The notes below the pieces were generated by a model that had not been told where the DNA came from, did not search any database, and saw nothing but the letters and a program-made list of their open reading frames with translations. A DNA stretch of 64,000 nucleotides, taken from positions 216,450 to 280,449 of the forward strand of contig CAVTHI010000008.1 in assembly GCA_963734525.1 (NCBI GenBank), written 5' to 3'. The stretch's first letter is position 1; each line of letters begins with the position of its first letter. This DNA is from an uncultured archaeon (lineage in GTDB: Archaea; Micrarchaeota; Micrarchaeia; Anstonellales; Bilamarchaeaceae). Position numbers and translations under genes: made by a program. Positions 18,879-43,273 of this stretch are shown piece by piece.

Positions 18879-18979
18879 GGAAATGTTTATAAACAGGGCA
18901 AAAAAAGGGGCATTTTCGGGTGATTGGGGCGGCCCCGGATTCGCAGAAACGTCCAGACGACAGTGGAAGCCGCACTAGA

Positions 18980-19039
18980 TTTAAATATTCGCGCGTTGCG
19001 ATACTAGCTAGTAATATTATAGGCTGTCGTTCAAAGGTG
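18980..19039 (+). promoter_or_regulatory. Putative promoter and RBS of the giant locus
   Basis: AT-rich TATA-like boxes TTTAAATATT (18980-18989) and TAATATTATA (19012-19021). AAAGGTG Shine-Dalgarno at 19033-19039, 7 nt before ATG 19047. Confidence 0.4.
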
Positions 19040-19046
19040 TCATGCT

Positions 19047-23341: not shown

Positions 23342-24700
23342 GGGACAACAACATCACGCAGGCGACAGCCCTTATAAACCGCATGATAGACCTGCTTCCC
23401 GAGGGCAGGAAGGCGGAGTTCAGGTCGAGGATTGCCGCCGCCAATCAAAGGAATGAAGGCGAATCGGAAAGCGCGTTCCGGCTCAGGCAAAATGGCATCC
23501 TCCAATCAACGTATGCGGAACTGGGCAATCTCACAGGCACGCGGACGACGAACGAGCAGGGCAACTTGATTTATGATACGGTCGGAAATTATGCGGATTA
23601 TCGTGTCGTTTCGGGGATGTTCTGGTCCGAGCGGTTCGATGCCGCAGGCTCTGCGATGAACGGCGCTGCCGCAACCATCGGCATCCAGTCGAATCGCGCC
23701 GGCATGTGGGTCACGAACCGCGTATTCGCGATTCAAAGGGAGGCGGCCGCTGAACGGACAGGCTTCCCTCCGGGGATGAATGCTATTGCTTCTGCGCTGT
23801 TATCGCCAGAAGGATTGGGGCTGGCCGGCGGAAGGACAGTGACCCCCCCGACTGACGCGACGCTCAATGAGATAATAAGCCACCTTCCGGCGGATAAGCG
23901 CGCCGATTACCAGGCGCGGCTTGCCAGGATAAGGGAGGCGGAGGGCCGCGCGGGAGCCGCAAGGCCCGGCACCCCAGATGCCATCACAAGGGACATTTTC
24001 ATGGAGGGCGGAGGCAGGCAGGGCCTCCTCGAATCCCTTGCGAGCGAACGGATTAGGACGCCGGCTGGAAGGGACGTGAACCTGCTCACAACCATCGCCA
24101 GCCGCAGCCCCCTATACTTCGATGCGGAAGGATATGACAGGAGGTTCGTCTCGGCGCAGGCGGCCGTGGACAGGGGCAATGTCGCCGAAGGGAACAGGAT
24201 TCTTCTCGGGCTGACCGGCGGGCGCCAGCGCGACGGGACCGAGGTCGTCGGTGACATCGAAATCGGCCAGGGAATGGAATCGAGCGATATCAGGCGCTTC
24301 ACGCTTAGGGCCTCGGCATGGACCCAGGAGAGGGCCAGGTCCGGCGTCCGCGGGGAATTCATGGAGGGCGCGCCGCCAGGCACGGAAGAGACGCGCGCAA
24401 GGCAGATGAGGGAGGACCGGAATCTGGCAATCGTCCCGGTTCTCGAAGCCCTGGAAGGCAGCATGGGAAGAAGCGTTTCCGAGCTGAATGCGGCGGCGAC
24501 TGCGAACGAGAGGGCGAGGGACGAAATCGGAACGACAAGGACTGTGCTGAGGGTCAACGATTCACTCGTAGCAAACCTCTGGGCCATGCTTCCGAGGGAT
24601 GCCGCCTCCAGGTACGACGCCCGCATTGACGAGATGAACGCGGGGGGGACGTCTCCGACAAGGCGCAATGAAATCGCGCGCGAGCTTTACGCCGAGATGC
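22618..24700 (+). repeat. Six dispersed copies of a helical 'LP' motif (hh..hLPxxxRAx[YF]xxRh) spanning the segment 3/4 junction
   Basis: Copies near 22621, 22727, 22828, 23381, 23868 and 24569. Examples: MIDLLPEGRKAEFRSRI, IISHLPADKRADYQARL, LWAMLPRDAASRYDARI. Confidence 0.6.
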
Positions 24701-28182: not shown

Positions 28183-31100
28183 GAAGCAGGGCCGGCGAAT
28201 TGCGCGCCGAGGCGCAGCAGCTGCGCACGCGGAGGGATGCGGACATCCAGCGCGCCGCCGCCCTTGAGCGCAGCGGAAGGGGCGAGGAGGCCCAGGCAAT
28301 CAGGAGGGGCGCGGCGAGAACCGGGGCTGAAATCTCATCCCGCGAAAACGAAGCCGTGTTCCTCACGCGCGAAGCGTCGAACCTGGAAACGATACTCAGG
28401 GCGAGAAGCGGCGAGGCCACAAGGCCCGCCGCGGCGCCATCGCGCAGGACGCGCGCGGCCGAGGGCGTGGACGAATCTTCGCCGGCGAGATTCATCTCCG
28501 ACGATGCGATAGGGACGAGGATAATAGAGCGCGCCCTCGCCCCGAGGGACAACCCGTCCCAGCAGCAGGAGTGGTTCGTAGGCGGCGAGCGCATGACGGT
28601 AGGAAACAACACCGAGGTCGTGACTACCCGCAGGGTGCTTCAGACCGTCGACACGTGGGTGCGCGGCATGGCGCGCGCTGGACAGGAAAGCGACATCATC
28701 GTGCTGAGCGGCGACAAGCGCCTGCTGAACAACATCAACAACGCGCTCGGGCGCCCAATCGGGGACCGGGCCCTATCCGCCTACCGCGAGGTCCTGCGCC
28801 GCGCGGTGAACGGGGCCGCGGGCGAAGGAACGCCGTTCCTGCTCCGCCCGTCGCAGAGCGGGGATGAAGTGCTTGCGGTCATAGTGGTTCCGAGAGGCCG
28901 CGGACAGGCGGTGCGCGAGGCGCTCGCCGCGGGAGTCAGGAGGGCCGAGGCGGACGTGCTCCAGGAAAGGCTGAATCCGGAGCATCCTGAAAGCCTCGCC
29001 GCCGCATCGAGGATGGTTAGGGACCCGAGAGGCCTCGTTTCCGCCGCTGTTGAGATTGGCGATGTCGTCCAGGTGCGGAGGGGCCAAGGCGGGGAGGTCA
29101 CTGCCACCGGCGTGCGCCAGGATGGAAGCACTTACAACGCGGAGGTCGCGAGGACCGACGCGCAGGGAAGGGAGACGCGCGAAATCGCCGGCCCGGCGCT
29201 CAGCCGCGCCGACGACCCGAGATGGGGGCCGGACCTCAGAAGGAGGCTCGGCGTTCGGGAGCAGATGGACATCACGCTCGGCCTCGAGCCGCTGGAAACC
29301 GCGCGCGTAAGGGACGCGCTGTCAAGGCAGCGGAGCGGCCAGGTGCTAAGGCCCGAGGAGCAACGCGTCGTCGCGGAAGTCCAAAGGCGCGTCGGGGAGG
29401 GCGCATCCGAGGATGCCGCCGTGTTCGCTACGGCCCAGGCGCGGGCGACCGTGTCCCCGACGGAAAGGGTGAGCGGACTCACATTCGAAGTAAGGCTCGA
29501 GGTCACGGACCCGGCCACGCTCGCGCGGATGCGTGCGCTCCTGCCCGAAAGCAACAAGGGGCTGGCCGAACTCGCATCGAACAGGTTCGGCATCAGGGGC
29601 CTCAACACATTCCTCGGCCACCAGGGCTCGAACGGGATAGTGACGTCAGTCGAGCACGCCGTCGGCGATTTCGCATCGTCGCCCTATGCGAGGCAGCGGG
29701 GAATCCGCGTGCGGCGCCTGGGCACCATGAAGTATATAATAGAAGGGGGCAACGCGGCCGACATGCGCATGATGCGCAGGATGATAGACCGCCAGCTCAG
29801 CTCGGACCACGCGCAGATGCGCATGAGCAGGACGACGCACCACGCCCAGCTTACGGACGTGACCGGCGAAACTGCCCTCGCCCACGCGCAGAACGGGCAT
29901 CTTTCGGTAGACCGGAGGCAGGACCCGTCGCGCAGGACGGACTGGGACGGGGAAACCAGGCTCTATGAGATGGCCAACTCGATTCTCTCGAACATATCAG
30001 TCCGCGACGAGGCGTCGCTTGCGAGGATGCTCGGGCCCGAGGGCTACAGGCTTCTCCGCGACAGCGGAGTCCTCGACATGGTACGGGGCAATGCGGAGGC
30101 GGGATTCGGAAGATACGCGAACGGCCCGATAAGGAATTTCGAGGATTTCGTCCGCGCCCTGCGCCAGGAAGTCGGCGGGGAGCGCGGAAGGACTATGGAG
30201 AGCGCGTTCAGGAGGTTCATCATCGAGAACGAGCCGGTGCTGAGCCGTAGGTTCGCGACCGAGAGGACGGAATTGTCCGCACCCGAAGTCTCTGGCCGCA
30301 TTGCGACCAGGAGGCAGGAAATCGGCCGGGTTTATGAAAGGCGCACGGGAACGCTCACCCCGTCCGAACAGCAGACCGTGACGAGGGTCGACGAGCTCGT
30401 CCGCACGCGCGGGATGACCGCCGAGCGGGCGATGGATTATGTCGCAGACGAGCAGGTGAGGCCGCACGCAGTCAACGCCGATGCGACGCATATCGAAGGG
30501 GAGCAGCGCACCTTCACCGCGATGGCGCCCGAATTCCAGGACACGCGCGTCGTGCAGGGGGACGGGAGCACGGTCAGGCTCGGGGACGCGCCGAGGGGAA
30601 GGCTGATAGGCCGCCTCGACGACACGTTCGAGACGTCAGGCTCTTCCGCAGGCGTTTTCCGCGGCGAGGTGCTGGTGAACGGACAGCCGGCCGAAGTGGC
30701 GATTAAATTATACAGGGATCCGCCCGGTGCGACGCACGACCAGCCGGCCACGCCCGCGAGATGGAGGCGGATGATAAGGTATGCGCAGGAAGAGGTGAAT
30801 TCCCTGCGCACGCTTTCTGAAATCAGGGTGAACCTGCCCGACGAGCACGGCGTCATGCGCGAGGTCCCGCTCGGACCGGCGGTGATAGGGTTCGTGCAGG
30901 TCGACGGCAACCCCGCGATAGCGATGGAGCGCGTGCAAGGCCGCGCGATCGACGAATTGACGCCGAGCGAGATAAGGAGGTTCGTCACGCCGAGGACCTA
31001 CGAGCAGCTGCGCACCATGTGGGATGCATTGCACCGCGCGGGATACGACATCGGCGATTTCCAGTTCGCGGTCCTCACGTCCGACCAGCGCGTCAACGGC

Positions 31101-34100
31101 GTGCAGAGAAGGGCCGGCGAGATAGTGTTCTGGGATGCCGGCGGCCTGGCGCCGCTCGCGAGGAACATGAGTCCGAAATCCGCGGATTACCAGGTGAACT
31201 TCCATGAGAGGGTCGCCGAGGCAATCCTGATATCCGATTATATGTGGCGCGAGGGACCTGACGGCGAGCAAATTCCGCGGAGGCCGCAGGCGGAGTTCAC
31301 TGCGCTTGACACGGCGCTCCGCGGCGCTCTTGGCGTGCCGGCAGACCGCCAGGTGACGACTGCCGACCTCCTCACCCAGTTCCGCGATATGGGCCAGAGC
31401 GGACCGCAGGGAACGGATGTGGGATTCTCGGCCGCGCAGCGCAGGCAGGCGGTGGCGGATTATCTTTCGCGCATGCCGGACCGCGCAGAAGCGGCGAGGC
31501 TCGAAACTACGCTCAGGGATATCGAGGCGGGTTCGGGAATGGCATTCCTTCCGCCGAGGGCGGAAGCCGCGGCCGCGCAGAGGCGCGCCGCGACAGCGGG
31601 AGCGCCGGCGGAGAGGGGGGATACGACCACGCCGATGCCGCCCCGCGAGCCGACGCAGCCCCCGCGCGAGCCATCACAAAGGCCGCGCGAACCGTCGCAG
31701 AGGCCGCGCGAGCCTTCGCAACAGCAGCGCGAGCCCACTCCGGAAGAAAGGGCCGACACCGAGCCGTCGCCGCCGCAGGCGAGGCCGCCTTCGAGGCCCA
31801 ATGAGTCCGCCCAGCTGCGCCCTGTTGAAGATGTGACGGGAGTGCCGAGGCAGGCGTTCGACGACATCCGCGCAGGCATGGCCATTCCGGACATCATCGA
31901 CAGGCTTTCGCAGGGCAACGCTACCGCGGCGAGAAGGCTTGAGAATGCCGTCGGGCCAATGCTTAGGGACCCGGTATTCAGCGAAAGATTCAGGCTCGCC
32001 TCGGATACTGAGAAAGCGATGATTGTCGAATCGCTGGCAAGGGGAAGGGCGCCAGCGGATGCATTCATGGATTTGGGCGCACTGACCGCACCCAGGACCG
32101 CGCAGGAATTCGAATCGCTCACGGCGAGGCTCGCGGCGCTTCCGGCCCAGGAGAGAAACCTGCGGCTCACCGAAATCAGGGCGGCGAACTCCCTGCTTGC
32201 GGACGCGGTCGGAATCGCCGCCGCAGAACCGTCGCCGCAAAGGAGGGCCCGCCTCGCGACCGAGTTCGAGACAGCGATGGGAGAGCGCGGGCGCATCGCC
32301 GAAGTCGAACGGGCAAGGGGCGCGCGCACGCCCGCCGAGCTCCGGGACCAGGAGGAAGCGCTGATACGCCGCACGGCAACGGACAGGGGATTGGATGCCG
32401 AGGCGGCCGTCAGGAATTACGGGGCCGGAGGGACGGAAGGCAGGCTCAATGCCATAGCGGGCCTGGGCGCCGATGTGACGCGCGTCCGCGCGCAGTTCCA
32501 GCGCGAGCAGGACAGGATAGGGCGCATGGCCGACGGACCTGCGAAGGACCATGCCCAGCAGCGCCTGGACCGGGCCGGGGAGGATTTGTTCGCGCTTTAC
32601 ACGAGAGGGAACCTCCAGGGCAGCATAAGCGGCCTTCCGGGTTTCGAGGGGGCGACGGTCGCCAGCATATCATTCCTTCCGGGGATGAGGGGCGTCTATG
32701 AGGTCCGCATGTCGAACAACCGGCGCGTCTTCATAAAGATGGAGGACGTTTCGGCCGCGGGCTTGGGCCGCGATTTGGCGGCTACGCGCGGATTGTACAC
32801 TTCCGAAATCCATGGCGGGTTCTCTTACGAGACAGGGCTCAGTTACCGCAACGGGACGCCGGTCCGGCAGGAGTACGGAATCATCGAGGACATCCATGAT
32901 GCGGCCGGCCGCAACATCCGCATCCGGCTCCCGTCAGGGCCTGCCGAGGATGTCCGCGTGGTGGGCGTCTCGATGCTGAGGCACGAGGTGCTCGAGGTCC
33001 CGCGGCCGCCGGCCGCAGGTGCATCGCCTGCGGAAGTGCAGGCGTACCAGCAGCGCCTCGCGAGGTTCACGTCCGACCCGGTCATCCGGGAATTCTACAG
33101 GCTTTCCGGGACGCCGCAGGGGCGCGAGACGCTCATGCAGGCGTGGAACGCATACCATGAATTGTCGAGGCGCTCGCTTCTCGGGGACAGGTACGCGCGC
33201 AACACCGCGGCAGTCCTCGTCGAGAGGGCGAACGGCGAGCGCGTCCTCACGTTCCAGCCGATAGACATGGATGCCGTGGGGTGGAGGGTATTGTCCAATC
33301 CGGATGGCACGCCCAATTTCATGTTCTTCAACAGGGACTTCGCGGACGCCAGCACGGATTTCGTCCAGAGGGCGTCGAGCGCGAGCCTGGCCGCTGAAAG
33401 CATCGGCCTCCTTCCCGCAGGGGTTCCGGCATATGCATTTGGCGACGCGATGTTCAGCCAGCGCGCGCAGAGGCCGCTTCCCCCGGAGATACCTCCGCAA
33501 AGGCAGGCAGGGCGCGACATCATCGCCCGCCATGACGGCCAGCCTTTCGGCGCAGGCTATGACACGACAAGCGGCGAGTACAGCCCGGTCGGAGGCACTG
33601 CCGTCCACGGTGGAAGGACGAGGTTCATCGAGCGGGCCGACGGGCGCATGAGGATGTACGCGGACGAGATGAACCCGCTGATGGAAGCCAACCTTTCGCC
33701 GCAGGCGAGGGCGGACTACGCGCGCGAGCAGCAGGAACGCATGCGCAGCGTGCGGAGAAGGCCTGGCGGAGGAGGTGGAGGCCCGCCGCCGCTTCCGGCG
33801 GCAAGACAGTCGTCAGGCCCGGTCGTCGAGATTACGGACGGGCAGATAATACGCGAGCCTTCGGCCCCGGCACCGAGGCCGAGCGGAAGAGCGCCGTCGC
33901 AGCGTCCTGAGCGGACGATGGAGGTTTCCGATTCCGATATAGTCCATGACGCTCCGGCGGTTCCGCCGGAGCAGCCCCCAGCTCCTTCGCAAAGGCGCGG
34001 CCCGCCTCCGCTTCCGACGCAGCGCGATGCGACGATGAATGTTTCCGATTCAGAATTGATTATCGAACCGCCGGCGGCACCGGCAAGGCGCGGGCCGCCT

Positions 34101-35528
34101 CCGCTCCCTCCCGCCGAGCCGGCCCAGGCGCCGTCGCGCAGGGGACCCCCGCCTCTCCCGCCAGAGCAGGCGCAGCAGCCGCGGCGCGGGCCGCCGCCGC
34201 TTCCAGCCAGAGGGGAGCGCACACAGCCGCTTACAGAGGCGGACATGATTCCGGTCCAGCCCCCAGGGCGCACGCCTCCGCCCCCGCCACCATCGGCGCA
34301 GGCAAGGAGGGCGCCCGCAGGGCCGCAGCCCCAGGTGAATCCCGTCGACCTCGTCCAGCCGGCTAACCTTGCAACGTTCGCCAACAGGCTCGCGGCCAAC
34401 GATGCCGCGGCGGTGCGCGACCTGGCAGCCATGCCGCCGCAGGTGCGCGACACGGTAAACGCCCTCATGCTGAGGATGGGCGGAGCGCCGAGAAGCCCCC
34501 AGGAGCAGGCGACGCTCGCCCGCGAATTCTCCGGAAGGGTGCTTGCGACGCGGCTGATTGCGGACCCGGAAACGCTGTGGAGGTTCGCCTCCACCTTCAG
34601 GTTCGGCGAGACCGCATCGGGCGTCACGCCCGAACAGACCGCCATGCTCAATTCGCTCCCCCCCTCCGTCCGCGGGACCGTGCTTGAATTCGCCGGGAGG
34701 CTGAGGAACGAATGGAGCGCGAGGGATGCGCTCGAACCCGGATACACCGAAAGGATAACCAGGCAGATAGATGTCGAAACCGTGCGGGACTTGTACGTCT
34801 CGCACAGGGCAGGAACCAGAATCACCGACCCGGCCGACCGCATGGCTGTCGAGTATGTCACCGCAGGCGGGAGGACTCCCGACCCCGCGACGCGCGAAGG
34901 CGCAAGGCTGATTGAGGCCGCCGCGGTCATGCGCAACGCCGCGAGGAGGCTTGTGGAAGCATCGGGCGGGTCTGCGGACGCGCTCGCAGCGGCGCGGGTA
35001 AATGCCGAAACCGTCAGGACAGGCCAGAGGCCGAATGATTTCAACAGGGCTTTGGCATACGACTTCATCAATGATTTGGCGCAGGCCAGCGCGGCTGCCG
35101 CCGGACGCGGAGTGCCCACAGCAGAGGATTACCTGTATGCAACAGTGACGCATGCATATTTCACGAGGGCCGGGAGCGCCGACACGGCGAGAATCTCCGG
35201 CACCCATTATTTCCCCGGAAGCGACGCAATCGAACAGCATGTCACCGCGACGCTGGAATGGGGCGGGCAGAGTTTCAATATCCGGATTTTCCGGGACAGG
35301 GTGAATTTCGGGGATGTGGAACCGGCGAGGGCAGTCGGCGAGCCGAGCTGGCCGTCATGGCAGATGAGGGACGCGTTCCTGAGATACGCACAGCGCACGC
35401 TGCGCGGGCCCGCTCGAAGAGGCGGTGCGCCCGGTCATGCGCGCGATACCGAGGGAAGCGGGGCAGGATGCCAGGGCGTGGGCCGCCGCGACGCGCGCGA
35501 ATCCGACCGGCGACATCCAGATACCTAG
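27603..35528 (+). CDS. Giant-locus segment 5 (2641 codons): coiled coil, two GGDEF-like modules, ePK-like fold, PI3K/PI4K-like module, Pro-rich arrays
   Basis: The frame is open and sensible upstream of ATG 27603 from ~27460 (RPDVIRARNSVEVLRILNSRELTPNDLEVFAFRRQQQ…). The tail after …AFLRYAQRTLRG looks out of frame. Motifs are listed under findings. Confidence 0.75.
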   Translation: METRAARLRESNPQSREATALDASAQRLRAEAAGLENSANTLLSEAAGRRTVARAGELRTRAERLEYRALLDQGQAEALRGRAAGLRAEAERMSPQPARREGRMSARAPDVPEVLANVSPERYAASALRNRALDLEQAAAANEARASRMGPEDRQATAGIAAGFREAARAMRTQAEQFESGSVTVTPEGVQALRSRAGELRAEAQQLRTRRDADIQRAAALERSGRGEEAQAIRRGAARTGAEISSRENEAVFLTREASNLETILRARSGEATRPAAAPSRRTRAAEGVDESSPARFISDDAIGTRIIERALAPRDNPSQQQEWFVGGERMTVGNNTEVVTTRRVLQTVDTWVRGMARAGQESDIIVLSGDKRLLNNINNALGRPIGDRALSAYREVLRRAVNGAAGEGTPFLLRPSQSGDEVLAVIVVPRGRGQAVREALAAGVRRAEADVLQERLNPEHPESLAAASRMVRDPRGLVSAAVEIGDVVQVRRGQGGEVTATGVRQDGSTYNAEVARTDAQGRETREIAGPALSRADDPRWGPDLRRRLGVREQMDITLGLEPLETARVRDALSRQRSGQVLRPEEQRVVAEVQRRVGEGASEDAAVFATAQARATVSPTERVSGLTFEVRLEVTDPATLARMRALLPESNKGLAELASNRFGIRGLNTFLGHQGSNGIVTSVEHAVGDFASSPYARQRGIRVRRLGTMKYIIEGGNAADMRMMRRMIDRQLSSDHAQMRMSRTTHHAQLTDVTGETALAHAQNGHLSVDRRQDPSRRTDWDGETRLYEMANSILSNISVRDEASLARMLGPEGYRLLRDSGVLDMVRGNAEAGFGRYANGPIRNFEDFVRALRQEVGGERGRTMESAFRRFIIENEPVLSRRFATERTELSAPEVSGRIATRRQEIGRVYERRTGTLTPSEQQTVTRVDELVRTRGMTAERAMDYVADEQVRPHAVNADATHIEGEQRTFTAMAPEFQDTRVVQGDGSTVRLGDAPRGRLIGRLDDTFETSGSSAGVFRGEVLVNGQPAEVAIKLYRDPPGATHDQPATPARWRRMIRYAQEEVNSLRTLSEIRVNLPDEHGVMREVPLGPAVIGFVQVDGNPAIAMERVQGRAIDELTPSEIRRFVTPRTYEQLRTMWDALHRAGYDIGDFQFAVLTSDQRVNGVQRRAGEIVFWDAGGLAPLARNMSPKSADYQVNFHERVAEAILISDYMWREGPDGEQIPRRPQAEFTALDTALRGALGVPADRQVTTADLLTQFRDMGQSGPQGTDVGFSAAQRRQAVADYLSRMPDRAEAARLETTLRDIEAGSGMAFLPPRAEAAAAQRRAATAGAPAERGDTTTPMPPREPTQPPREPSQRPREPSQRPREPSQQQREPTPEERADTEPSPPQARPPSRPNESAQLRPVEDVTGVPRQAFDDIRAGMAIPDIIDRLSQGNATAARRLENAVGPMLRDPVFSERFRLASDTEKAMIVESLARGRAPADAFMDLGALTAPRTAQEFESLTARLAALPAQERNLRLTEIRAANSLLADAVGIAAAEPSPQRRARLATEFETAMGERGRIAEVERARGARTPAELRDQEEALIRRTATDRGLDAEAAVRNYGAGGTEGRLNAIAGLGADVTRVRAQFQREQDRIGRMADGPAKDHAQQRLDRAGEDLFALYTRGNLQGSISGLPGFEGATVASISFLPGMRGVYEVRMSNNRRVFIKMEDVSAAGLGRDLAATRGLYTSEIHGGFSYETGLSYRNGTPVRQEYGIIEDIHDAAGRNIRIRLPSGPAEDVRVVGVSMLRHEVLEVPRPPAAGASPAEVQAYQQRLARFTSDPVIREFYRLSGTPQGRETLMQAWNAYHELSRRSLLGDRYARNTAAVLVERANGERVLTFQPIDMDAVGWRVLSNPDGTPNFMFFNRDFADASTDFVQRASSASLAAESIGLLPAGVPAYAFGDAMFSQRAQRPLPPEIPPQRQAGRDIIARHDGQPFGAGYDTTSGEYSPVGGTAVHGGRTRFIERADGRMRMYADEMNPLMEANLSPQARADYAREQQERMRSVRRRPGGGGGGPPPLPAARQSSGPVVEITDGQIIREPSAPAPRPSGRAPSQRPERTMEVSDSDIVHDAPAVPPEQPPAPSQRRGPPPLPTQRDATMNVSDSELIIEPPAAPARRGPPPLPPAEPAQAPSRRGPPPLPPEQAQQPRRGPPPLPARGERTQPLTEADMIPVQPPGRTPPPPPPSAQARRAPAGPQPQVNPVDLVQPANLATFANRLAANDAAAVRDLAAMPPQVRDTVNALMLRMGGAPRSPQEQATLAREFSGRVLATRLIADPETLWRFASTFRFGETASGVTPEQTAMLNSLPPSVRGTVLEFAGRLRNEWSARDALEPGYTERITRQIDVETVRDLYVSHRAGTRITDPADRMAVEYVTAGGRTPDPATREGARLIEAAAVMRNAARRLVEASGGSADALAAARVNAETVRTGQRPNDFNRALAYDFINDLAQASAAAAGRGVPTAEDYLYATVTHAYFTRAGSADTARISGTHYFPGSDAIEQHVTATLEWGGQSFNIRIFRDRVNFGDVEPARAVGEPSWPSWQMRDAFLRYAQRTLRGPARRGGAPGHARDTEGSGAGCQGVGRRDARESDRRHPDT
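31641..31742 (+). repeat. Tandem 7-aa/21-nt repeat PREPSQR (about 4.5 copies)
   Basis: PREPTQP PREPSQR PREPSQR PREPSQQQ REPTP, read directly from the sequence. Confidence 0.85.
33766..34335 (+). repeat. Proline-rich array: 5x GPPPLP cores (4 as RRGPPPLP) interleaved with acidic [VI](S/T)D(S/G)[DE/Q][IL][IV] motifs, ending in PPPPPP
   Basis: GGGGGPPPLP…VVEITDGQIIREP…MEVSDSDIVHDAP…QRRGPPPLP…MNVSDSELIIEPP…ARRGPPPLP…SRRGPPPLP…PRRGPPPLP…LTEADMIPVQPPGRTPPPPPPS. Confidence 0.85.
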
Positions 35529-38500
35529 GACGAGGCCAGGCCGCGCTCCCCCGGCGCAGACATCGATGACGCCTGAGGAGGTCGTCAGGGTTCATCTTAC
35601 CGCAGATACGGGCGGAAGGGCGGATGCTGCAGCCGCCCTGATGCGCATGCCCCCGCGCGACCGTGCACGGACCGTCGAATTGCTCCGTGAAAGGGCGCGC
35701 CCGCTTGAGGAACGCGCAGGAGCGATGGAGGCCGAGGCGAGGAGGCTTGAGGCACAGACCGCGCCGCAGGAAACGAACATCGTCCAGAGGCAGCAGGGCG
35801 CCGAGGCCGAAGCTACAAGGCTCTTCGAAGAGGGTCGCCAGCTCAGCACCCAGGCGCAGGCGGCCGAGGCGCGCGGGGATGCTCCCGAAGCCGCCCGGTT
35901 ACGGACCGAGCAGAACCGCATTGAAACGCAGGCTTACGAGAGGGATGCCGAAGGCAGGCGCCTCGCCATCGAGCTTAGCCGCGTCCGGGAGCCTGCCAAC
36001 AACCTGCGAAACGACGCAGCCGGACTGAGGACCCAGGCGCAATACTGGAACGAGCATGCGATGTTCTACCGCGAGCTGGGAAGCCTCAGCGGCGATGCGG
36101 GCACGAACATTTCCACGATGTTCATGATTCCGAGGGAAGAGCTTGCATCGATATACGCCCGTGCGCCCACATTATCCGAAGCGAGGCAGGCGATTTATGA
36201 CCGCCTCGGAATACGGCTCGGGGACCTTCCCCCGCTCGAAGTCAGGAGCGACGCGTATAAGAGCTTCAACTCGCTTGCGGACGACCCGTACATAGCGGGC
36301 ATGATGCTCACCGGGGACCTTTTCCGCAACATCGAGCAGATGGTGAGGCCGGACATGCTCGGCCTCCAGCCGGGCGACCGCGTGGTCGTGAGGGGCATAA
36401 GCTTCCAGAACGGCCTGGTCGGCGCATACCGCATCAGGCTCGAAGTCGTGGACAGCACGGGAAACCCGAGGACATTCACGGACCGGGGCGGGAATTCCAG
36501 GGACAGCATGACCGTCTTCGCGAAGAGGCAGGACCTGCGTCCCGATGCGGTCGGCTCGGAAGGAGGCTCGCTCACCGGGGCGCCATCGCCGCAGATTCGC
36601 GTGACCGGGCCGAACGGAAACCTTTCATACGTATCGCCCGAAGGGCATACAATCAACTACGGCATCATGCGCGACATACATGATTTCAGCGGGGAAGTGG
36701 CCGCGGGCGGGCACCGCCTGCAGGTCACGGTCGACGCCGCGGAAGACCTGTACAGCCTCGTGTTCAGGCAGGAGGGTGCGCGCGATGCTGGAAGGCAGCA
36801 ATTGTTCGCCGAACTGCGGGACAACCCGGACCAGTTCATCGAGGCGCTCGGCTATGCGCAGACCGGATTCGCCGCGGCCGGGTTCTATGACAGGCACGAG
36901 GCGAACGTCTGGGCGATGTGGCTCCGGATAGGTAACCAGCCGCCCGCGGAAGCCGCGCGCATGGCGCAAAGCCTCCGCGGCCAGGGCTACCGCGTCCGGG
37001 ACAACGGTGACGGCTCGTTCAGCTTCCTGCGCTTCGGCGCGATTGATTCGGATACGTTCGGTTCCTACCGCGCGACGGTCCGCGAGGACGACAGCATCTC
37101 GCTGCGCCCGATGGCCAACCAGTTGACGACGGACATGCACCGCGTTTTCGTTCATTTGACATATGAGATGAATACCGCGGAAATGACATTGGCGGCCTCG
37201 CAAGGAAGAAGGCCGCGCCTCCTCACAGTCGAGCAGGTCATTGAAAGGTCGTTCGGCGCGAACATGGACGGGCCGTGGATACGGGGCATGCGCAGATGGG
37301 CCACCGAGTTCAGCCCGACCACGGAGCAGGGCAGGAGATTCAATGATTCGATGAGGGGCCTGCTGAGCAACTACCACGGCCAGCGCAGCGGCATGGGATT
37401 CGCGATGGAAGGGGCCCAGCTCGGGAGGTTCGAGAGCGACGGCTACGTGCCGGTCCCCTCGGCCCTCAACGGCTCGCCGGTCACAATCGTGGACGGCATG
37501 GACGGAAGGGCGAGCTTCCTCGCTACCGGCAGGATTGCCACGAACCCGACAATCGGGGAATCCGCAAACAGGCGCATCATCGCGGCTATACCCGAAGGGC
37601 AGGACAGGTTCCTTATCAGGACTGATGATTTGCACAGGACGCAGCGGACTGCGCTGCGCGGCGCCCTCGGCTCTGCGGCAACAGAGTTCAGGACCGCAGG
37701 CGTCGGGGGGAGAACCTATCTCGTCATAAGCGACCCGGCGGCGATACCGCAGCAATACCTTGACAGGACGATATCGGTCAACAGGACCGGCGATGTCCTC
37801 TACTCGTACAACTATGGCTCCTTCATGACAATGTTCCCGGAGGGCAGGAGAATGTTTATGCTCCGCGTCGACAACCTGCCCCGGTCGGATGCCCGGGCGG
37901 CCGGCAGGATTCGCGGGGCACAGCCGCTTGAGCTCGGGATAACAGGCGAAAGAAGATATGTGATCGTAGAGAATCCGGACAGCATCCCGCAGGCCCTCAG
38001 GGACCGTGCCGTCGAAGTCGTGAGGCACGAAAACCGCCTGATGGGAGCCGAAGGGATGGCAACCAACATCGGGATACTGCATACGAGGACCATCGGCGCG
38101 GTCAGGATGTTCGACCACGTGATGGGCATGGGCGACGCCGGCTGGAGGAGCCTCTGGCAGGGCGTCCGCGACGGCTTGATGACTGCAGAGGGGAACGAGC
38201 GCGCCGCCGGCGGGCAGGACTTCCTCATGAGGAGGGTTCCCCAGCCGAATGTGCGGCAGGCGCTCCCGCCGGAGTATGGCGGCCCGGCAAGGACCGCGCC
38301 GCTTCCGCCTGATGCGAACCCGCCGGGCGGCGCGCCGCCCGTGGCGCCTCCGCCAGTTCCACCGCAGGCGGCACCTTCGCGGGGACCGGACGGAACGATA
38401 AGGGGAGTCACTCCGCCAGCGGATGCGCAGGCGCAAAGGCCGCCGTCCCAGCCGCCACCGCCGCCGGTTCCGCGGCAGTCTGCACCGCCTGAAGCGGTGC

Positions 38501-39903
38501 CGAGCGATGCGAGGCCTACCGCGGTGCGCCCGCCGGAACCGCTGCCATCGGATGCAAGGCAGACGCAGAGACGCGGGCCTGCAGAGCCGATTCCATCGCA
38601 AAGGAGGCCGGCAGAACAGGTGCCACCGATTCCTTCTGAAGCAAGGCCGACAACACGCCAGGCTCCGCCGCCCCCGGCACCAGACGTGACGCTAAGGCGG
38701 GAAGGGCCGGTTCCGCCGCAGGCCATTCCCACTGACGCGAGGCCCACGCAAAGAATGGAATTGGGCGGGGCAGCGGCATATCCAGGAATGGCAGCGCAGG
38801 GCCGGGGATTCGGGCATAACGGTCTGCCGGGACGCATTTATGCTCCTGAAGAAGTGATGAAGGCGGGAGGCATCGCGAATGCCGCAGCCGGACGGACGGT
38901 GGAGGGCATCAGCGCCGCGGACGGCCGCGTCGCAGCGGAGCTCGCATTGCAGACGCCGTTCGTGCAGGCAGGGGCGGATGCACGGATGCGGATGGCGCTC
39001 ATAGCGATGGACAACGCCTCGATTGTCCGCGGCGAAAGCTCGATTCCCGTAAGGCAAAGGAATCCGGTGCAGGGCTCGATGAACGCCGAGCTTTCCGCAG
39101 CAGTCACCCAGACGGACGCCGCCGGCATGAGATACCGGGATGTCAGCGCATTTTACGACCGCGAAACAGGGGCGATAACCGCAATCGGGGCAAGGGGGCA
39201 GGGAGAGCGGGTCACAATCAGGGTCAACATGGACGACGGGCGCATCTTCAGCGTCAGCGGCACGGGCGAGGTGCATCCGTCGGTCGCAGCGCTTAGGGGA
39301 CATCAGATAATCGAGCCCCCGGCGCCCATAAGCGGAGGGCCGAGGGGAGGCCCGAGCGGGGGCGGCCCGGGCAGCGTCCGTGAAACGGCCGCTTTGGCGC
39401 AACGGGTGATGGGGGCGGAGCCCGCCGCGATTGCCAGCCTTGCATCGGCTTCGCAGGAAACGCGCCTCGCCGTCGGATTCGAGATTGCGGGGAGGTTGGA
39501 ACTCACGGATGCGAGGCATCTTGCCGGATTCGCCCGCGACCTGGTGATGTATGACCTTCATCGGTCCGGGCGGCGCCCGATAACGAACCCTGCGGATTTG
39601 GCAAGGGTCACGGAAAGCGCGAGGCGCATCGAGCTTCTGCCGGAACCAATCAGGAGGGCGGTCAGGGCCGTAAGCTCGGATGCCGGTTTCGGGCTGAATT
39701 CATTGCAGGATGATACAAGATTCAACAGGTTCGTCGGTAACCGGAGGACCGGCGGCGCATTGATAGAGACCGCGCGCGGGGCCATCATGCGCGCCATGCC
39801 GGCCGGGGACGATGTCCAATTGAGGATGGCTGTTGGCGCCGAAGAGATGGGAATGCCCCGTGCGCCGGGACAGGAGGGAAGGCCGGGCGGGGCAGGGGCA
39901 TGA
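35425..39903 (+). CDS. Giant-locus segment 6 (1492 codons): coiled coil, second PI3K/PI4K-like module, tandem ~80-aa duplication, Pro-rich array, C-terminal domain
   Basis: GTG start. The frame opens at 35383 and reads …GPLEEAV|RPVMRAIPREAG. It ends in a clean ATGA overlap with the next gene (39900-39903). Confidence 0.75.
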   Translation: MRPVMRAIPREAGQDARAWAAATRANPTGDIQIPRTRPGRAPPAQTSMTPEEVVRVHLTADTGGRADAAAALMRMPPRDRARTVELLRERARPLEERAGAMEAEARRLEAQTAPQETNIVQRQQGAEAEATRLFEEGRQLSTQAQAAEARGDAPEAARLRTEQNRIETQAYERDAEGRRLAIELSRVREPANNLRNDAAGLRTQAQYWNEHAMFYRELGSLSGDAGTNISTMFMIPREELASIYARAPTLSEARQAIYDRLGIRLGDLPPLEVRSDAYKSFNSLADDPYIAGMMLTGDLFRNIEQMVRPDMLGLQPGDRVVVRGISFQNGLVGAYRIRLEVVDSTGNPRTFTDRGGNSRDSMTVFAKRQDLRPDAVGSEGGSLTGAPSPQIRVTGPNGNLSYVSPEGHTINYGIMRDIHDFSGEVAAGGHRLQVTVDAAEDLYSLVFRQEGARDAGRQQLFAELRDNPDQFIEALGYAQTGFAAAGFYDRHEANVWAMWLRIGNQPPAEAARMAQSLRGQGYRVRDNGDGSFSFLRFGAIDSDTFGSYRATVREDDSISLRPMANQLTTDMHRVFVHLTYEMNTAEMTLAASQGRRPRLLTVEQVIERSFGANMDGPWIRGMRRWATEFSPTTEQGRRFNDSMRGLLSNYHGQRSGMGFAMEGAQLGRFESDGYVPVPSALNGSPVTIVDGMDGRASFLATGRIATNPTIGESANRRIIAAIPEGQDRFLIRTDDLHRTQRTALRGALGSAATEFRTAGVGGRTYLVISDPAAIPQQYLDRTISVNRTGDVLYSYNYGSFMTMFPEGRRMFMLRVDNLPRSDARAAGRIRGAQPLELGITGERRYVIVENPDSIPQALRDRAVEVVRHENRLMGAEGMATNIGILHTRTIGAVRMFDHVMGMGDAGWRSLWQGVRDGLMTAEGNERAAGGQDFLMRRVPQPNVRQALPPEYGGPARTAPLPPDANPPGGAPPVAPPPVPPQAAPSRGPDGTIRGVTPPADAQAQRPPSQPPPPPVPRQSAPPEAVPSDARPTAVRPPEPLPSDARQTQRRGPAEPIPSQRRPAEQVPPIPSEARPTTRQAPPPPAPDVTLRREGPVPPQAIPTDARPTQRMELGGAAAYPGMAAQGRGFGHNGLPGRIYAPEEVMKAGGIANAAAGRTVEGISAADGRVAAELALQTPFVQAGADARMRMALIAMDNASIVRGESSIPVRQRNPVQGSMNAELSAAVTQTDAAGMRYRDVSAFYDRETGAITAIGARGQGERVTIRVNMDDGRIFSVSGTGEVHPSVAALRGHQIIEPPAPISGGPRGGPSGGGPGSVRETAALAQRVMGAEPAAIASLASASQETRLAVGFEIAGRLELTDARHLAGFARDLVMYDLHRSGRRPITNPADLARVTESARRIELLPEPIRRAVRAVSSDAGFGLNSLQDDTRFNRFVGNRRTGGALIETARGAIMRAMPAGDDVQLRMAVGAEEMGMPRAPGQEGRPGGAGA
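37591..38040 (+). repeat. Tandem duplication of a ~75-80-aa module inside segment 6
   Basis: PEGQDRFLIRTDDLHRTQRTALRGALGSAATEFRTAGVGGRTYLVISDPAAIPQQYLDRTISV versus PEGRRMFMLRVDNLPRSDARAAGRIRGAQPLELGITGERRYVIVENPDSIPQALRDRAVEV. Confidence 0.7.
38491..38750 (+). repeat. Five copies of [AEP]x[VLI]P(S/T)(D/E/Q)(A/R)R(P/Q)(T/A) within a wider Pro-rich tract (38230-38760)
   Basis: EAVPSDARPT, EPLPSDARQT, EPIPSQRRPA, PPIPSEARPT, QAIPTDARPT. Confidence 0.8.
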
Positions 39904-41360
39904 GGGGCGCGGATGCGCCAAGGGCCATGGATGAGACTGCAGCCTCGCCTGATTCGGCCCGCGTCCAGCCGCCGCTGAGGCCGCCGTCACTCGGCGAAAT
40001 GCCGAATTCGCGCAGGTCCCCCTCGCCCGCCAGGCAAGCGCAGAGGCCCGCCGAGCAGGCCGAATCGGGTTTCACGCTCAGCCGCGCAATCGCAGGGTCA
40101 AGGCCCGAGGTTGCATTCGCGCAGCTGCATCCTGCGGAAGTTCCGGGCCGGCCGGGATATGTCATGCGCAACGGTGAAGAGGTTGCGGCATACCATGTCA
40201 TCCAGCATACGGAGAACGTAGCCCGCGCCGCATATGACCTGACGCTGGCGAGGGCAAGGGCCGGCGACTTCACCGCACAGGACAGGACGCTTTTCGGTTC
40301 CCCGGAAGGGAAGGCGCAGTTCATGTCGCAGGTCGGCATACTCCATGACGCAGACCCGAGGCGTGACGCGGGAGCGCCCGCCCGCGTCCCGGCGACTCTC
40401 GAGTGGATGAGGTCCCAGGAGGGCAGGACGTTCATGAGGGAGAGGTTCGGCTGGGACGAATCCACGCCCCAAGGCAGGTTGAGGATTGCCATGGCCGGGG
40501 CGATAATCCAGCGCACCGAATTCCCATTCGATTCCAAGACAAGGCCGGTCAGGACATGGCCGAATGACCCCGAGGCCGCCAGGACTGCGATAGGCGGCCA
40601 CTACGGGACGGAATCGCCTACCGCGAGGTACACGAACATGGTGAGGGAAATCTCGGGGCTGTCCCCGGACGCCCGCGATTTCGTGCTGCGCGAAGCGGCG
40701 TTCTTCTCGGAATATGCCGACAAGTCGAGCTGGTACTTCGAGAGGCCGGACGTCGCTTTGCTGACAGTCACGGGCCTTACCAACGAAGTCCGGGCGGTCC
40801 TTCCGCCGGGAGTCAATGCCCCGGACTTCCTTCCGACCACGCGCGGCCAGTTCCTTGATTCGATAGGAAGGCCCGCGAGCTTCGGCGAGGATGCGCGCAT
40901 TGCGAGGGAGCTGGGGGCGCCTGAGCCGAGGATACCCGGCAGGGACGAAATGATCGGGATGCTGGGCGCGGGCCAGAGGCGGAACTGGGCATCCACCAAC
41001 GAGATGTTCGGGCTGGTTGAGATTTACCACAGGAGATGGGACGTGGCCGCGCCCACGAATCCCGAAGAGCTCGCGCGTTTCAATTCATTGCTGAGCGCCG
41101 ACCCGGCGACAAGAGAGGCGCAGGTTGCCATGCTCCGGGGATTGCGCTCGGAGAACCTGGACACGGCGCAGGCCGCGAGGGGGATAGCGCAGGGCTTTGA
41201 CAGAGAGGGATGCCGGTGCGGTCGAACGGTCGTCGCCTGCGCCCCGCCAGCTCTCGCCAGCGGAACAGGCGAACGCGGAATTGATGCGGGCATCATTGAT
41301 TCCGGATACGTTCCAGAACGAGATAATCGCGAGGATGCCGGAAATCCTGAGGTTGAATGA
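39900..41360 (+). CDS. HD-domain-like protein with disordered Pro/Arg-rich N-terminus; probably continues into 41197-41964 after a frameshift near ~41200
   Basis: ATG 39900 overlaps the upstream stop (ATGA). AYHVIQHTENVARAAYDL … VGILHDADPRRD fits the H…HD…D metal-site pattern. The tail …EGCRCGRTVVACAPPALASGTGERG looks out of frame. Confidence 0.6.
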   Translation: MRGADAPRAMDETAASPDSARVQPPLRPPSLGEMPNSRRSPSPARQAQRPAEQAESGFTLSRAIAGSRPEVAFAQLHPAEVPGRPGYVMRNGEEVAAYHVIQHTENVARAAYDLTLARARAGDFTAQDRTLFGSPEGKAQFMSQVGILHDADPRRDAGAPARVPATLEWMRSQEGRTFMRERFGWDESTPQGRLRIAMAGAIIQRTEFPFDSKTRPVRTWPNDPEAARTAIGGHYGTESPTARYTNMVREISGLSPDARDFVLREAAFFSEYADKSSWYFERPDVALLTVTGLTNEVRAVLPPGVNAPDFLPTTRGQFLDSIGRPASFGEDARIARELGAPEPRIPGRDEMIGMLGAGQRRNWASTNEMFGLVEIYHRRWDVAAPTNPEELARFNSLLSADPATREAQVAMLRGLRSENLDTAQAARGIAQGFDREGCRCGRTVVACAPPALASGTGERGIDAGIIDSGYVPERDNREDAGNPEVE

Positions 41361-41964
41361 TGCGCAGTACACCACGGCATTGGAGAGGCTTGAAATCCTG
41401 ACAGGCCTCGGCCAGACCCCCGCACTGGCAGTCCTGAAGCTGGTGACGGACAGGCCGGACGTGCTCACCATGCCGGATGCGGGGTTCAACCTGCTTTTGG
41501 CCAGGATAGAGCAGCGTGCCGATATCATCAACAGGCTGACCGGCGGCGACCAGAGAATCATGTCGGCGAGGGGGCTCAACTATTTCGACGACAGCGGCGT
41601 CCTGTTCCTGGACATAGCCGAGATAACGAGGAGGGGCAACCTGCCGCTTCCGAACCCGCCCCCCGCCCCGGTTCCAACCGCAAGGGAGCCGCCTCAGGGT
41701 ACGCTCAACCGGAGGTTCAGCACCTTGGATGTGAAGAGGATTTTCGAGCACATGGGATACGTGTTCGTCGGAAGGACCGGGGAGAACATCATGAGGCACC
41801 CCGACGGGCGGACTGCGTCCATTCCTGAAGCGCGCGAAGTGGCGGGCGGCACGCTAAACAGCGTCCTGCAGAACAACGGGATCACCAGGAGGCAGTTCTT
41901 CGAGGCGGCAAGGGACGCCGGGGTCATCACGAGGCAGGTCGCGCGGCAGGTCTTGGGAGAGTGA
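41197..41964 (+). CDS. Helical region ending in a HicA/YcfA-like domain (about 41715-41964)
   Basis: TTG start only. C-terminus LDVKRIFEHMGYVFVGRTGENIMRHPDGRTASIPEAREVAGGTLNSVLQNNGITRRQFFEAARD follows the HicA pattern, but GEN replaces the usual GSH. Confidence 0.6.
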   Translation: MTERDAGAVERSSPAPRQLSPAEQANAELMRASLIPDTFQNEIIARMPEILRLNDAQYTTALERLEILTGLGQTPALAVLKLVTDRPDVLTMPDAGFNLLLARIEQRADIINRLTGGDQRIMSARGLNYFDDSGVLFLDIAEITRRGNLPLPNPPPAPVPTAREPPQGTLNRRFSTLDVKRIFEHMGYVFVGRTGENIMRHPDGRTASIPEAREVAGGTLNSVLQNNGITRRQFFEAARDAGVITRQVARQVLGE

Positions 41965-41980
41965 AACGGGAGTGACGCTT

Positions 41981-42232
41981 ATGGAAGACGACAAGGAGAT
42001 AGTGAAGGTCGAGGGATTCAACGTGAAGGTCTGGAAGGAGGATGGGACGTTCATCGCCGAGGTCCAGGAACTCCCCGGATGCGTGAACGAAGGCAAGTCC
42101 AAGGAGGAGGTCCTCGGCAAGATACAAAAAACGATTGTCGCTTATGTATCATCGATGGCTGGCGACCTCCCGAAAAAACCCCCGGCCAAGCCGGGCGGCA
42201 AAGGCGGGCCGAAGAAGAGGGTATTGAACTGA
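41981..42232 (+). CDS. hicB: HicB-like (UPF0150 fold) small protein with basic tail; candidate antitoxin/immunity
   Basis: ATG 41981 lies 16 nt after the upstream stop, with GGGAG SD at 41968-41972. KVEGFNVKVWKEDGTFIAEVQELPGCVNEGKSKEEVLGKIQKTIVAYV fits the HicB N-terminal domain. No RHH/HTH domain, only a KKPPAKPGGKGGPKKR tail. Confidence 0.7.
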   Translation: MEDDKEIVKVEGFNVKVWKEDGTFIAEVQELPGCVNEGKSKEEVLGKIQKTIVAYVSSMAGDLPKKPPAKPGGKGGPKKRVLN

Positions 42233-42275: not shown

Positions 42276-42884
42276 TCATTTTTTCTCTGCGGGCGGGACA
42301 TTGGCGCGCCCGATTGTAGGCGCTTCCGGAACGGCCGGTCCGGCGAACCGCAGGGAGCCGTCGTATATCGCAACGAGCCCGCCCTTCCTGGCATCCTCGC
42401 TCGACGCGCCGGCCTCTGCCGACCTTATCGCGCTCTTGACCGCGCCCCAGTCCAGCTCCGGGGGGGTGTTGTGGTAGCAGACAATCCGCTGGCGAACTAT
42501 TATCCTGCGCTCCGGGTCGGCAAGGACGAAATAGACCGTCCCCGCACGCTCGTGAAGGCCGAGCCCGTATGACATGCCGGAAACGTCCGGCGACGCCCCC
42601 ATCGCAAGGGACATGAGGATGTTGCTGATGGAGAAATTCGCGTCGGATGAATAGTATTGCGACGAGCCGCCCGTGCTTTCGTAGAGCATGGCAGGCATGG
42701 AGAGCTTGCTTTCCAGCTCCGAGTCCCAGCCACGTGCGAGCCCTTTCAGCCTTTTGATGACGTCGGCCGATGATACGCGCCTGTAATTATCCATGATAGC
42801 CACCGGGGATACGGCCTTTGCGAACGGCCTTTTTGCAGATTCCGCGCCGGTTTTCGCTGGACCAGATGATGAGGCTCTTGCCAT
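42276..42884 (-). CDS. Hypothetical protein, 'Y family' paralog
   Basis: The track ORF starts at 43031. I prefer ATG 42884 (MARASSSGPAKTG…), which leaves a 23-nt gap after the upstream gene. The C-terminal domain aligns with 16476-17075. Confidence 0.6.
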   Translation of the reverse strand: MARASSSGPAKTGAESAKRPFAKAVSPVAIMDNYRRVSSADVIKRLKGLARGWDSELESKLSMPAMLYESTGGSSQYYSSDANFSISNILMSLAMGASPDVSGMSYGLGLHERAGTVYFVLADPERRIIVRQRIVCYHNTPPELDWGAVKSAIRSAEAGASSEDARKGGLVAIYDGSLRFAGPAVPEAPTIGRANVPPAEKK

Positions 42885-42907
42885 GATGTGATTTGCCAGG
42901 AAATGTT

Positions 42908-43273
42908 TTAAAGCCGGATTGTCCGGATGCTGTTTTCCTTGTTCACGACGAAATCGAACGCTTCGCCGCCGGATTCGCGCTCCCGGACCGCCCCGAGCGC
43001 GTCGCGGACGGACCTGATGAACGAGTCCCATGAGGCATTTTCGGAAAACGCCCCGGAGATGGAATCACAGACGATTATTTTCCTCCTGCGGTCGAGGAGG
43101 GTGCAGAATACGCTGCTCCCGTGCTCGCTTACATGGATGCCGTACTCGGGCAGGGCGCTAGGCATCGGCTCTCCGGCCATGAGCGAGCCGAAGACCCTGC
43201 CGATGCCTTTTGCGGCATCGGACGAGACGGACGTGGCATCGCCGACCAGGTAGAGGGCATCAGGCATGGCCAA
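42908..43273 (-). CDS. Hypothetical protein, short 'Y family' paralog
   Basis: 121 aa. EYGIHVSEHGSSVFCTLLDRRRKIIVCDSISGAFSENASWDSFIRSVRDAL aligns with the other two members. Confidence 0.55.
   Translation of the reverse strand: MAMPDALYLVGDATSVSSDAAKGIGRVFGSLMAGEPMPSALPEYGIHVSEHGSSVFCTLLDRRRKIIVCDSISGAFSENASWDSFIRSVRDALGAVRERESGGEAFDFVVNKENSIRTIRL

Follow-up and report, generated by a model that had tools for sequence, protein, structure and literature searches.

A HicA-like domain at the end of a giant archaeal protein and its HicB-like downstream partner

As a rule, HicA occurs as a free-standing toxin of about 60 amino acids (aa). Can a domain of this type form the end of a giant archaeal protein, and what might it do there together with a HicB-like neighbour? 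These questions are raised by a locus on contig CAVTHI010000008.1 of an uncultured archaeon (Micrarchaeota, Bilamarchaeaceae; assembly GCA_963734525.1), of which the 64,000 nucleotides (nt) from position 216,450 to 280,449 were analysed. This whole stretch is called the window, and all coordinates refer to it. A sequence-only reading had proposed that a HicA-like domain terminates a large protein at the end of a 23-kb operon, that a small HicB-like gene follows directly, and that both genes together obey the logic of polymorphic toxins and their immunity proteins.

The proposed domain lies in the open reading frame (ORF) 41197-41964 on the plus strand (frame 1), which comprises 255 codons from a TTG and ends with the stop codon 41962-41964. 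The gene call in the database (P0001) starts at ATG 41335 and gives 209 aa, and the HicA-like part is thus found in an ORF of 209 to 255 codons. Together with a C-terminal helix extension and the stop codon it occupies positions 41710-41964 (+), corresponding to residues 172-255. The Pfam profile HicA_toxin (PF07927) matched residues 178-229 over profile positions 3-58 of 58 with an E-value of 6.8e-6 and 26.5 bits, which is 0.5 bit short of the gathering score of 27. The best sequence match in the PDB obtained with phmmer was the HicA protein 1whz of Thermus thermophilus (E 0.0023). In a single-sequence AlphaFold2 model of the ORF the mean predicted local distance difference test score (pLDDT) was 52.6 overall and reached 70-87 across residues 170-255. 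Foldseek comparison of this model with the PDB again returned 1whz, as the top and sole convincing match (probability 1.00, TM-score 0.77 normalised to the target, root-mean-square deviation 2.0 Å, 67 columns). DSSP assigned helices to residues 176-185 and 217-226 and strands to residues 198-200 and 206-208 of the model; the first strand of the alpha-beta-beta-beta-alpha order was not called. Furthermore, a profile of the subfamily aligned with canonical HicA in hhalign (99.0%, E 4.8e-18). Residues 172-255 are thereby confirmed as a HicA-type domain with a dsRBD-like fold (dsRBD, double-stranded RNA-binding domain), and the domain sequence quoted in the sequence-only reading was exact.

The domain departs from canonical HicA at its catalytic motif. 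Three homologous loci were found, namely the window itself and two related contigs (L001 and L006), and in all three the canonical GSH reads GEN, i.e. the glycine is retained and the histidine is replaced by asparagine. This substitution, already noticed from the sequence, was placed identically by the homologue alignment and by hhalign. In an alignment of five subfamily sequences (A5) the glutamate of GEN and the histidine of the motif MRHPDG are invariant. In HicA of Burkholderia pseudomallei the exchanges H24A and G22C abolish toxicity (PMC3969222).

Behind this domain lies a small HicB-like gene at 41972-42232 (+), encoding 86 aa from GTG 41972 or 83 aa from ATG 41981. The ATG is located 16 nt past the stop codon of the HicA ORF and is preceded by the Shine-Dalgarno-like sequence GGGAG at 41968-41972. 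The protein consists of a predicted beta-beta-beta-alpha core and a basic low-complexity tail and has no DNA-binding domain; the basic tail and the missing DNA-binding domain had been proposed beforehand. Its single-sequence matches were weak, comprising UPF0150 (E 7.9e-4, 19.7 bits versus a cut-off of 27.3), HicB_lk (E 0.03), PHROG 497 'HicB-like' (E 5.8e-4) and the PDB entry 2yzt (E 0.075). A profile built from the protein and two homologues was compared with 14 published HicB proteins of the compact Class 1 and aligned over residues 17-66 (98.1%, E 6.8e-14). The single-sequence AlphaFold2 model (mean pLDDT 67.5) contains strands at residues 9-13, 16-23 and 26-33 and a helix at residues 44-62, with no fourth strand; its best Foldseek match in BFVD was an uncharacterised phage protein (E 0.013). 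The profile-profile comparison confirms the assignment of the 83-86-aa product as a predicted small HicB without DNA-binding domain. Hence the proposed identities were upheld for both genes, for HicA by profile and Foldseek and for HicB by profile-profile comparison.

The question whether the HicA-like domain belongs to a large protein has to be answered with the help of the relatives. In the window as written it does not, since a change of frame, from 0 to 1, separates the preceding ORF 39900-41360 from the HicA ORF. In L006, a metagenome contig with 88-93% nt identity to the window, no fewer than 3,415 codons form one open frame instead, which ends in the HicA-like tail. This frame spans residues 938-2603 of ORF 27603-35528 (87% identical), the whole ORF 35425-39903, the first 30 or so residues of ORF 39900-41360 and the tail. 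L001 (JAGVPF010000021.1, 'MAG: archaeon isolate DeMMO3_33', the same contig as locus L005) shows about 80% nt identity to the window. Here the frame is open from the start of the contig for at least 563 codons, and the C-terminus of the 1,492-codon ORF 35425-39903 is joined in frame to the tail. When GTDB was scanned with the tail, the L001 contig was the only match. In its ancestral state the HicA-like domain thus formed the end of a giant, largely helical protein, which comprises at least 3,415 aa in the close relative and may have reached about 7,000 aa, provided that the operon was once a single frame throughout. The alternative that a free-standing hicAB pair merely sits beside the locus was rejected, as the frame of the relatives is continuous and the coding sequence in front of the domain is conserved. 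An internal start (GGAGG followed by TTG/GTG, 41711-41734) exists in the window; its TTG is not conserved in L001, which has an alanine codon there.

Three differences separate the window from this ancestral arrangement. An extra G at 35412 (GGGCCCG versus GGGCCC- in L006) splits the single L006 frame into the ORFs 27603-35528 and 35425-39903. At 39895-39903 one base is missing after 39895 compared to both L001 and L006, so that TGA 39901-39903 enters the frame and the conserved internal ATG 39900 heads a frame-0 ORF; the resulting ATGA stop-start overlap could permit coupled translation. Finally, an insertion of 1,210 nt (3n+1) at 39990-41199 (+), open in frame 0 and missing from L001 and L006, forms the body of ORF 39900-41360 (486 aa). 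It represents a 403-codon segment between the giant body and the region preceding the HicA-like domain, in a frame different from both neighbours. The length of about 690 residues suggested for the HicA-bearing protein therefore did not hold: this insertion, specific to the window, makes up the body of the 486-codon ORF, and the ancestral protein was much longer. A programmed +1 frameshift at 41195-41201 was rejected, too, because the sequence CTT TGA C resembles a prfB site but sits in frame 2, the incoming frame being 0.

Upstream of these breaks the giant locus continues as a chain of ORFs. Five successive large ORFs at 19400-35528 (+), in frames 2, 1, 2, 1 and 0 (19400-20566, 20521-21807, 21710-23341, 23317-28182 and 27603-35528), are followed by the 1,492-codon ORF at 35425-39903 (+, frame 1), which in the relatives runs straight into the HicA-like tail. 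In a frame plot of the G+C content at third codon positions (GC3) coding extends without a gap between 19.05 and 42.23 kb, and the frame changes near 20.46, 21.73, 23.32 and 27.49 kb. The HicA- and HicB-like pair thus does close a 23-kb operon. In total, seven frame switches interrupt the 22.5 kb of contiguous coding sequence from 19400 to 41964 (+), and the gene is present as eight ORFs in this assembly, several of which end in arginine-rich out-of-frame tails. Since the ratio of nonsynonymous to synonymous substitution rates (dN/dS) is 0.05-0.15 along the whole gene, the breaks either arose very recently or are errors of the assembly. The flanking housekeeping genes, encoding ProRS, a DHH protein, RtcA, LonB, SBDS, TldD and a DUF373 protein, are intact, and the breaks are therefore specific to the giant locus. 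With the gene split here and kept in one frame in the relatives, the fusion would be missed if this genome were annotated alone.

The HicA-like domain does not stand alone at the end of the giant protein. Positions 41197-41709 (+) encode junction residues and then a helical region, called 'pre-HicA' region here, which was recognised as conserved in the homologue alignment. It contains two copies of the motif PE[IV]L..[LM].D…L.R[IL]E and one motif GLNYF.D..VL.LD. Comparison of its profile with the PDB gave no significant relative; there was a weak match resembling a helix-hairpin-helix (2h56, E 0.45).

An exhaustive HMMER search of 1.84 billion representatives returned 13 proteins at E ≤ 0.001, among them large proteins with the same C-terminal module, namely P0005 (738 aa), P0012 (1,050 aa), P0008 (497 aa) and P0010 (303 aa), as well as short free forms of the HicA-like subfamily (P0006 and P0007). 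P0005 matched residues 83-254 of the window protein (phmmer, E 6.3e-31), and with HicA_toxin it reached 39.1 bits at a cut-off of 27; P0010 reached 29.4 bits. The pre-HicA region is conserved in the distant proteins P0005 and P0008, too. P0005 is encoded on a 524-kb archaeal contig (L007) among the genes for TruD, Trm1 and MetRS and is followed, with an ATGA overlap, by the gene of an 87-aa homologue of the HicB-like protein (38% identity), which has the same start IKVEGFNV and a basic tail. In P0008 a HicB-like segment appears to be fused in cis behind the HicA-like domain. The canonical histidine position is variable in the subfamily: it reads KEH in P0005 and P0008, EWH (shifted by one) in P0006 and P0007 and KEL in P0012.

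The scaffolds in front of the module differ. No similarity was detected between the N-terminal regions of P0005 and P0012 and the giant ORFs of the window, hydrophobic segments included. By inspection of the sequences, all of them possess long helical stretches and one hydrophobic segment rich in glycine and alanine. The partner gene is kept in every locus with readable DNA that encodes a large protein with this tail, adjoining the tail in the window, L001 and L006 and overlapping the preceding stop codon in L007. These comparisons show a conserved module that recurs on unrelated large scaffolds in distant archaea: the helical pre-HicA region leads into a HicA-like domain lengthened by a C-terminal helix, and a small basic-tailed HicB-like protein is encoded separately. 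We regard the pair of the window as a probably genuine but divergent compact hicAB-type module, with hicA in front of hicB and a small HicB without DNA-binding domain.

A second type of arrangement was observed beside this one. L002 (1318-2229), L003 (1860-2780) and L004 (1823-2743) encode proteins of about 305 aa, in which an unannotated N-terminal domain precedes a domain of the HicA-like subfamily. Their genes are divergent from a gene for an RNA ligase (PF09414), followed by an aminotransferase-like gene, and have no HicB-like partner. A PIN domain considered for the N-terminal region of P0010 and of a further protein, P0018, was not supported by Pfam.

The HicA-like domain is under the strongest purifying selection of the locus (dN/dS 0.046-0.10; 0.046 versus L006). 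The corresponding values are 0.10-0.14 for the HicB-like gene (0.13 versus L006), 0.14-0.15 for the giant body (more than 3,000 codons versus L006; 0.147 for the 1,492-codon ORF) and 0.2-0.3 for the pre-HicA region, compared to 0.22 for RtcA (versus L006). These values show that the giant gene was under purifying selection until very recently. The position of the locus beside the genes for RtcA and ribosomal proteins is stable in three genomes.

How could such a pair act? We favour, at somewhat less than even chances, a guarded effector acting inside the producing cell. The HicA-like domain would bind RNA and perhaps cleave it within this cell, and the HicB-like protein would bind the domain and keep it inactive, as in type II HicAB systems. 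The giant N-terminal part, with its one hydrophobic segment rich in glycine and alanine, may supply the localisation or the trigger. The pair would thus work in cis and not as an exported polymorphic toxin. As the canonical catalytic histidine is an asparagine here, catalysis, if there is any, would have to use other residues. We consider the guarded effector somewhat likelier than an exported toxin because no secretion feature was found and because of the HicB-like segment apparently fused in cis in P0008. Furthermore, the stable synteny next to RtcA and the ribosomal-protein genes favours an action inside the cell.

Several observations weigh against a guarded effector. The histidine required for toxicity is an asparagine in the window, L001 and L006 and a leucine in P0012; the domain is thus possibly non-toxic, in which case no purpose of a guard would be obvious. 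P0010 and P0018 have no HicB-like gene downstream and adjoin an RNA ligase gene, i.e. the domain can exist unguarded. Foldseek with the low-confidence model of the HicB-like protein (pLDDT 67.5) gave no significant match to a HicB fold in the PDB. Finally, a partner gene downstream of a C-terminal toxin-type domain is also exactly what is expected of a polymorphic toxin.

Because H24A abolishes the toxicity of B. pseudomallei HicA, the loss of the histidine leads to a second explanation, which we rate as rather unlikely. The module would be domesticated and non-toxic, with the ribonuclease (RNase) activity lost, the dsRBD-type domain serving as RNA-binding or docking end of the giant protein and the HicB-like protein as a stable subunit or adaptor. 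The combination of a missing toxicity-required histidine with the lowest dN/dS of the locus (0.05-0.10) fits such a role, as do the stable location among housekeeping genes and the occurrence of the domain beside an RNA ligase gene in P0010 and P0018, where no HicB-like neighbour is present. The conserved basic tail of the HicB-like protein could contact nucleic acid. However, a histidine is kept at or next to the canonical position elsewhere in the subfamily (KEH in P0005 and P0008, EWH in P0006 and P0007). The HicB-like partner is moreover strictly retained, with translational coupling in L007, and this is the signature of a toxin that needs neutralisation.

The polymorphic toxin of the sequence-only reading, with a giant protein exported or presented at the surface, a HicA-like RNase delivered to competitors and a HicB-like immunity protein, is in our view unlikely. 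In its favour are the very large scaffold with a C-terminal toxin-type domain and a small partner gene directly downstream, the same tail module on unrelated scaffolds and the hydrophobic segment rich in glycine and alanine, which was seen by inspection in P0005 and P0012 as well. The variable insertion just upstream of the tail in one of the three relatives would also be in agreement with it, and there is a bacterial precedent in S8-type and RHS polymorphic toxins with HicA as C-terminal toxin (PMC9424270). Against it, neither the operon nor the 64-kb window revealed a signal peptide, a known trafficking or pre-toxin domain, a processing peptidase or a secretion-system gene. A hydropathy scan of the operon ORFs, a crude test, found no hydrophobic N-terminus. 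The differing C-terminal domains anticipated for homologous giant loci did not appear in the three loci that could be compared: in the window, L001 and L006 a shared tail (92-98% aa identity) is combined with one and the same partner gene. Orphan toxin or immunity cassettes are lacking downstream of the operon. The insertion adds no second partner gene, and the catalytic histidine is missing. The HicB-like segment apparently fused in cis in P0008 is difficult to understand as an immunity protein and fits self-regulation better. Tail and HicB-like gene are conserved across distant archaea while the N-terminal scaffolds differ, which we count against a polymorphic toxin as well, even though it is compatible with tail modules shared between scaffolds. 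The proposed logic is only partly supported: the downstream partner gene is there, but neither a secretion signal nor an exchange of tails was found.

A decaying pseudogene or a mis-assembly, with the HicA-like ORF not expressed as part of anything and the arrangement of the window functionless, is very improbable: the seven frame switches in 22.5 kb with none in the intact flanking genes, the two breaks that are single-base differences from relatives keeping one frame and the arginine-rich out-of-frame tails would fit it, but dN/dS of 0.14-0.15 over more than 3,000 codons versus L006 indicates selection until very recently, in-frame stops are absent from the coding frames, the HicA- and HicB-like ORFs are intact, the ATGA overlap at 39895-39903 could still allow coupled translation, and the explanation concerns the state of the window only and not the identity of the module.

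A broader interpretation goes beyond the guarded effector. Archaeal giant proteins of at least 3,400 and perhaps about 7,000 residues, membrane-associated and ending in a HicB-guarded, His-less effector derived from HicA, might constitute a new conflict system, which seems quite doubtful to us at present. If true, it would be either a contact-dependent toxin without known secretion apparatus or a giant sensor-effector that triggers growth arrest at the RNA level upon infection.

The remaining parts of the operon offered few hints to function. It begins with a gene for a protein of 118 aa without family match (19047-19403, +), where coding starts in the GC3 frame plot and which is preceded by an AT-rich, promoter-like region (18880-19046). 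Neither the large ORFs nor the 1,210-nt insertion matched any sequence in Pfam, NCBIfam, PADLOC, PHROG or the PDB, and the 1,492-aa ORF recovered nothing but itself in a word-indexed search. The hydrophobic, transmembrane-like stretch rich in glycine and alanine covers residues 833-1000 or so of ORF 23317-28182 and is the only one found in the locus. The motif ..[LM]LPEG.RA.[FY]..RL.. occurs at least five times at 21710-24500 (+), across the boundary of the ORFs 21710-23341 and 23317-28182, and suggests that both may be parts of one repeat-containing protein. By eye, kinase-like (VAIKLY) and PI3/4-kinase-like (RVFIKMED … GDRYARN … PIDMD) motifs were noticed around residues 1020-1190 and 1700-1900 of ORF 27603-35528; they found no support in Pfam, NCBIfam or the PDB. 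A related IHD motif in ORF 35425-39903, also seen by eye, had no match in Pfam or the PDB. The insertion contains, by eye, an H…HD…D pattern (HVIQHTENV … GILHDADPRR) recalling HD phosphohydrolases, which has no profile or PDB support. An intein or mobile element was considered as its possible source; no intein boundary residues were seen by eye, and neither a paralogue within the locus nor a viral relative was found.

The G+C content of the operon (20001-42000) is 63-68% compared to 56-62% in the flanks, with a strong positive AT skew of +0.14 to +0.28; both may result from amino-acid composition or from foreign origin. A viral or defence-island origin was rejected, as PADLOC and PHROG were empty for the operon ORFs except for the HicB-like match, IMG/VR scans gave no viral relatives of the locus and the flanks are housekeeping genes. 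Searches of the 64-kb window for tRNAs and Rfam families found no RNA genes.

Downstream of the HicB-like gene follow convergent minus-strand genes without toxin-like match and then RtcA. The T-run CATTTTTTCTCT at 42277-42288 (+), in the convergent intergenic spacer, likely ends the operon transcript, since oligo-T tracts act as terminators in archaea. Two minus-strand paralogues, 16476-17075 (-) and 42276-43031 (-), enclose the giant operon; they are 43% identical (E 2e-38), have the motif RRI[IV]VR..CYHN.PP..DW..VK in common and are both without a family match. By eye, 42908-43273 (-) looks like a more distant copy of them, and L001 and L006 contain homologues of this downstream pair. The adjacent genes 17651-18199 (-) and 18300-18878 (-), located just upstream of the operon, appear by eye to be paralogues of each other, and they have no Pfam match.

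Compared to known systems, the pair is closest in gene order to the compact hicAB loci. Gerdes (2024, mBio) defined 14 genetic contexts of HicA, of which Class 1, as characterised there, comprises compact hicAB with a small HicB (67-97 aa) without DNA-binding domain and is common in archaea (PMC10865869). The pair of the window shares with this class the order hicA then hicB, the close spacing or overlap of the genes and the small HicB (83-87 aa in our study). In contrast to the Class 1 HicA described as a free protein of 60-85 aa with GSH, the domain found here ends a protein of thousands of residues, reads GEN, is preceded by a conserved helical region and carries an extra C-terminal helix. 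TTHA1913 of T. thermophilus (1whz), the prototype of the HicA structure, has the HPDGR turn and the GT[LF] motif in common with the window protein at 27% identity; it is a free protein of 70 aa and has GGH where the window reads GEN.

The nearest architectural precedent is Class 14 of the same classification, the SMC-HicA proteins (SMC, structural maintenance of chromosomes). The account given there proposes fused HicA/HicB proteins and SMC-HicA proteins as defence effectors (PMC10865869). Like the protein described here, Class 14 proteins are large, mostly helical or coiled-coil and end in a HicA dsRBD-type domain, and they are proposed to be guarded or triggered effectors. No SMC match was obtained for the window ORFs, P0005 or P0012 at E-values up to 0.1, and, unlike in Class 14, no NERD domain was detectable in the window ORFs or P0005. 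The class description in that account mentions no HicB partner, whereas a separate HicB-like gene follows here; compared to the proteins it covers, those of our study are archaeal and 3 to 10 times longer.

HicA-type domains at the extreme C-terminus of large multidomain proteins were reported in 2022 for bacterial S8-type polymorphic toxin systems and an RHS toxin (PMC9424270). These toxins possess signal peptides and an S8 peptidase, BetaH or RHS delivery domains, none of which were found in the proteins described here. Their HicA is about 50% identical to that of ordinary toxin-antitoxin (TA) pairs and keeps the catalytic histidine, which does not apply to the HicA-like domain of the window. 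A HicA domain at the end of a large protein is thus already published for bacteria and not new in itself. New are the archaeal setting, the extreme size, the dedicated subfamily with its pre-HicA region and basic-tailed HicB-like partner, and the variable catalytic position. As this position varies naturally (H, N, L, or shifted by one) under strong purifying selection, the locus lends itself to asking if HicA-type domains can work in the absence of the canonical histidine; it also allows asking whether a TA pair can be the guarded output of a giant protein.

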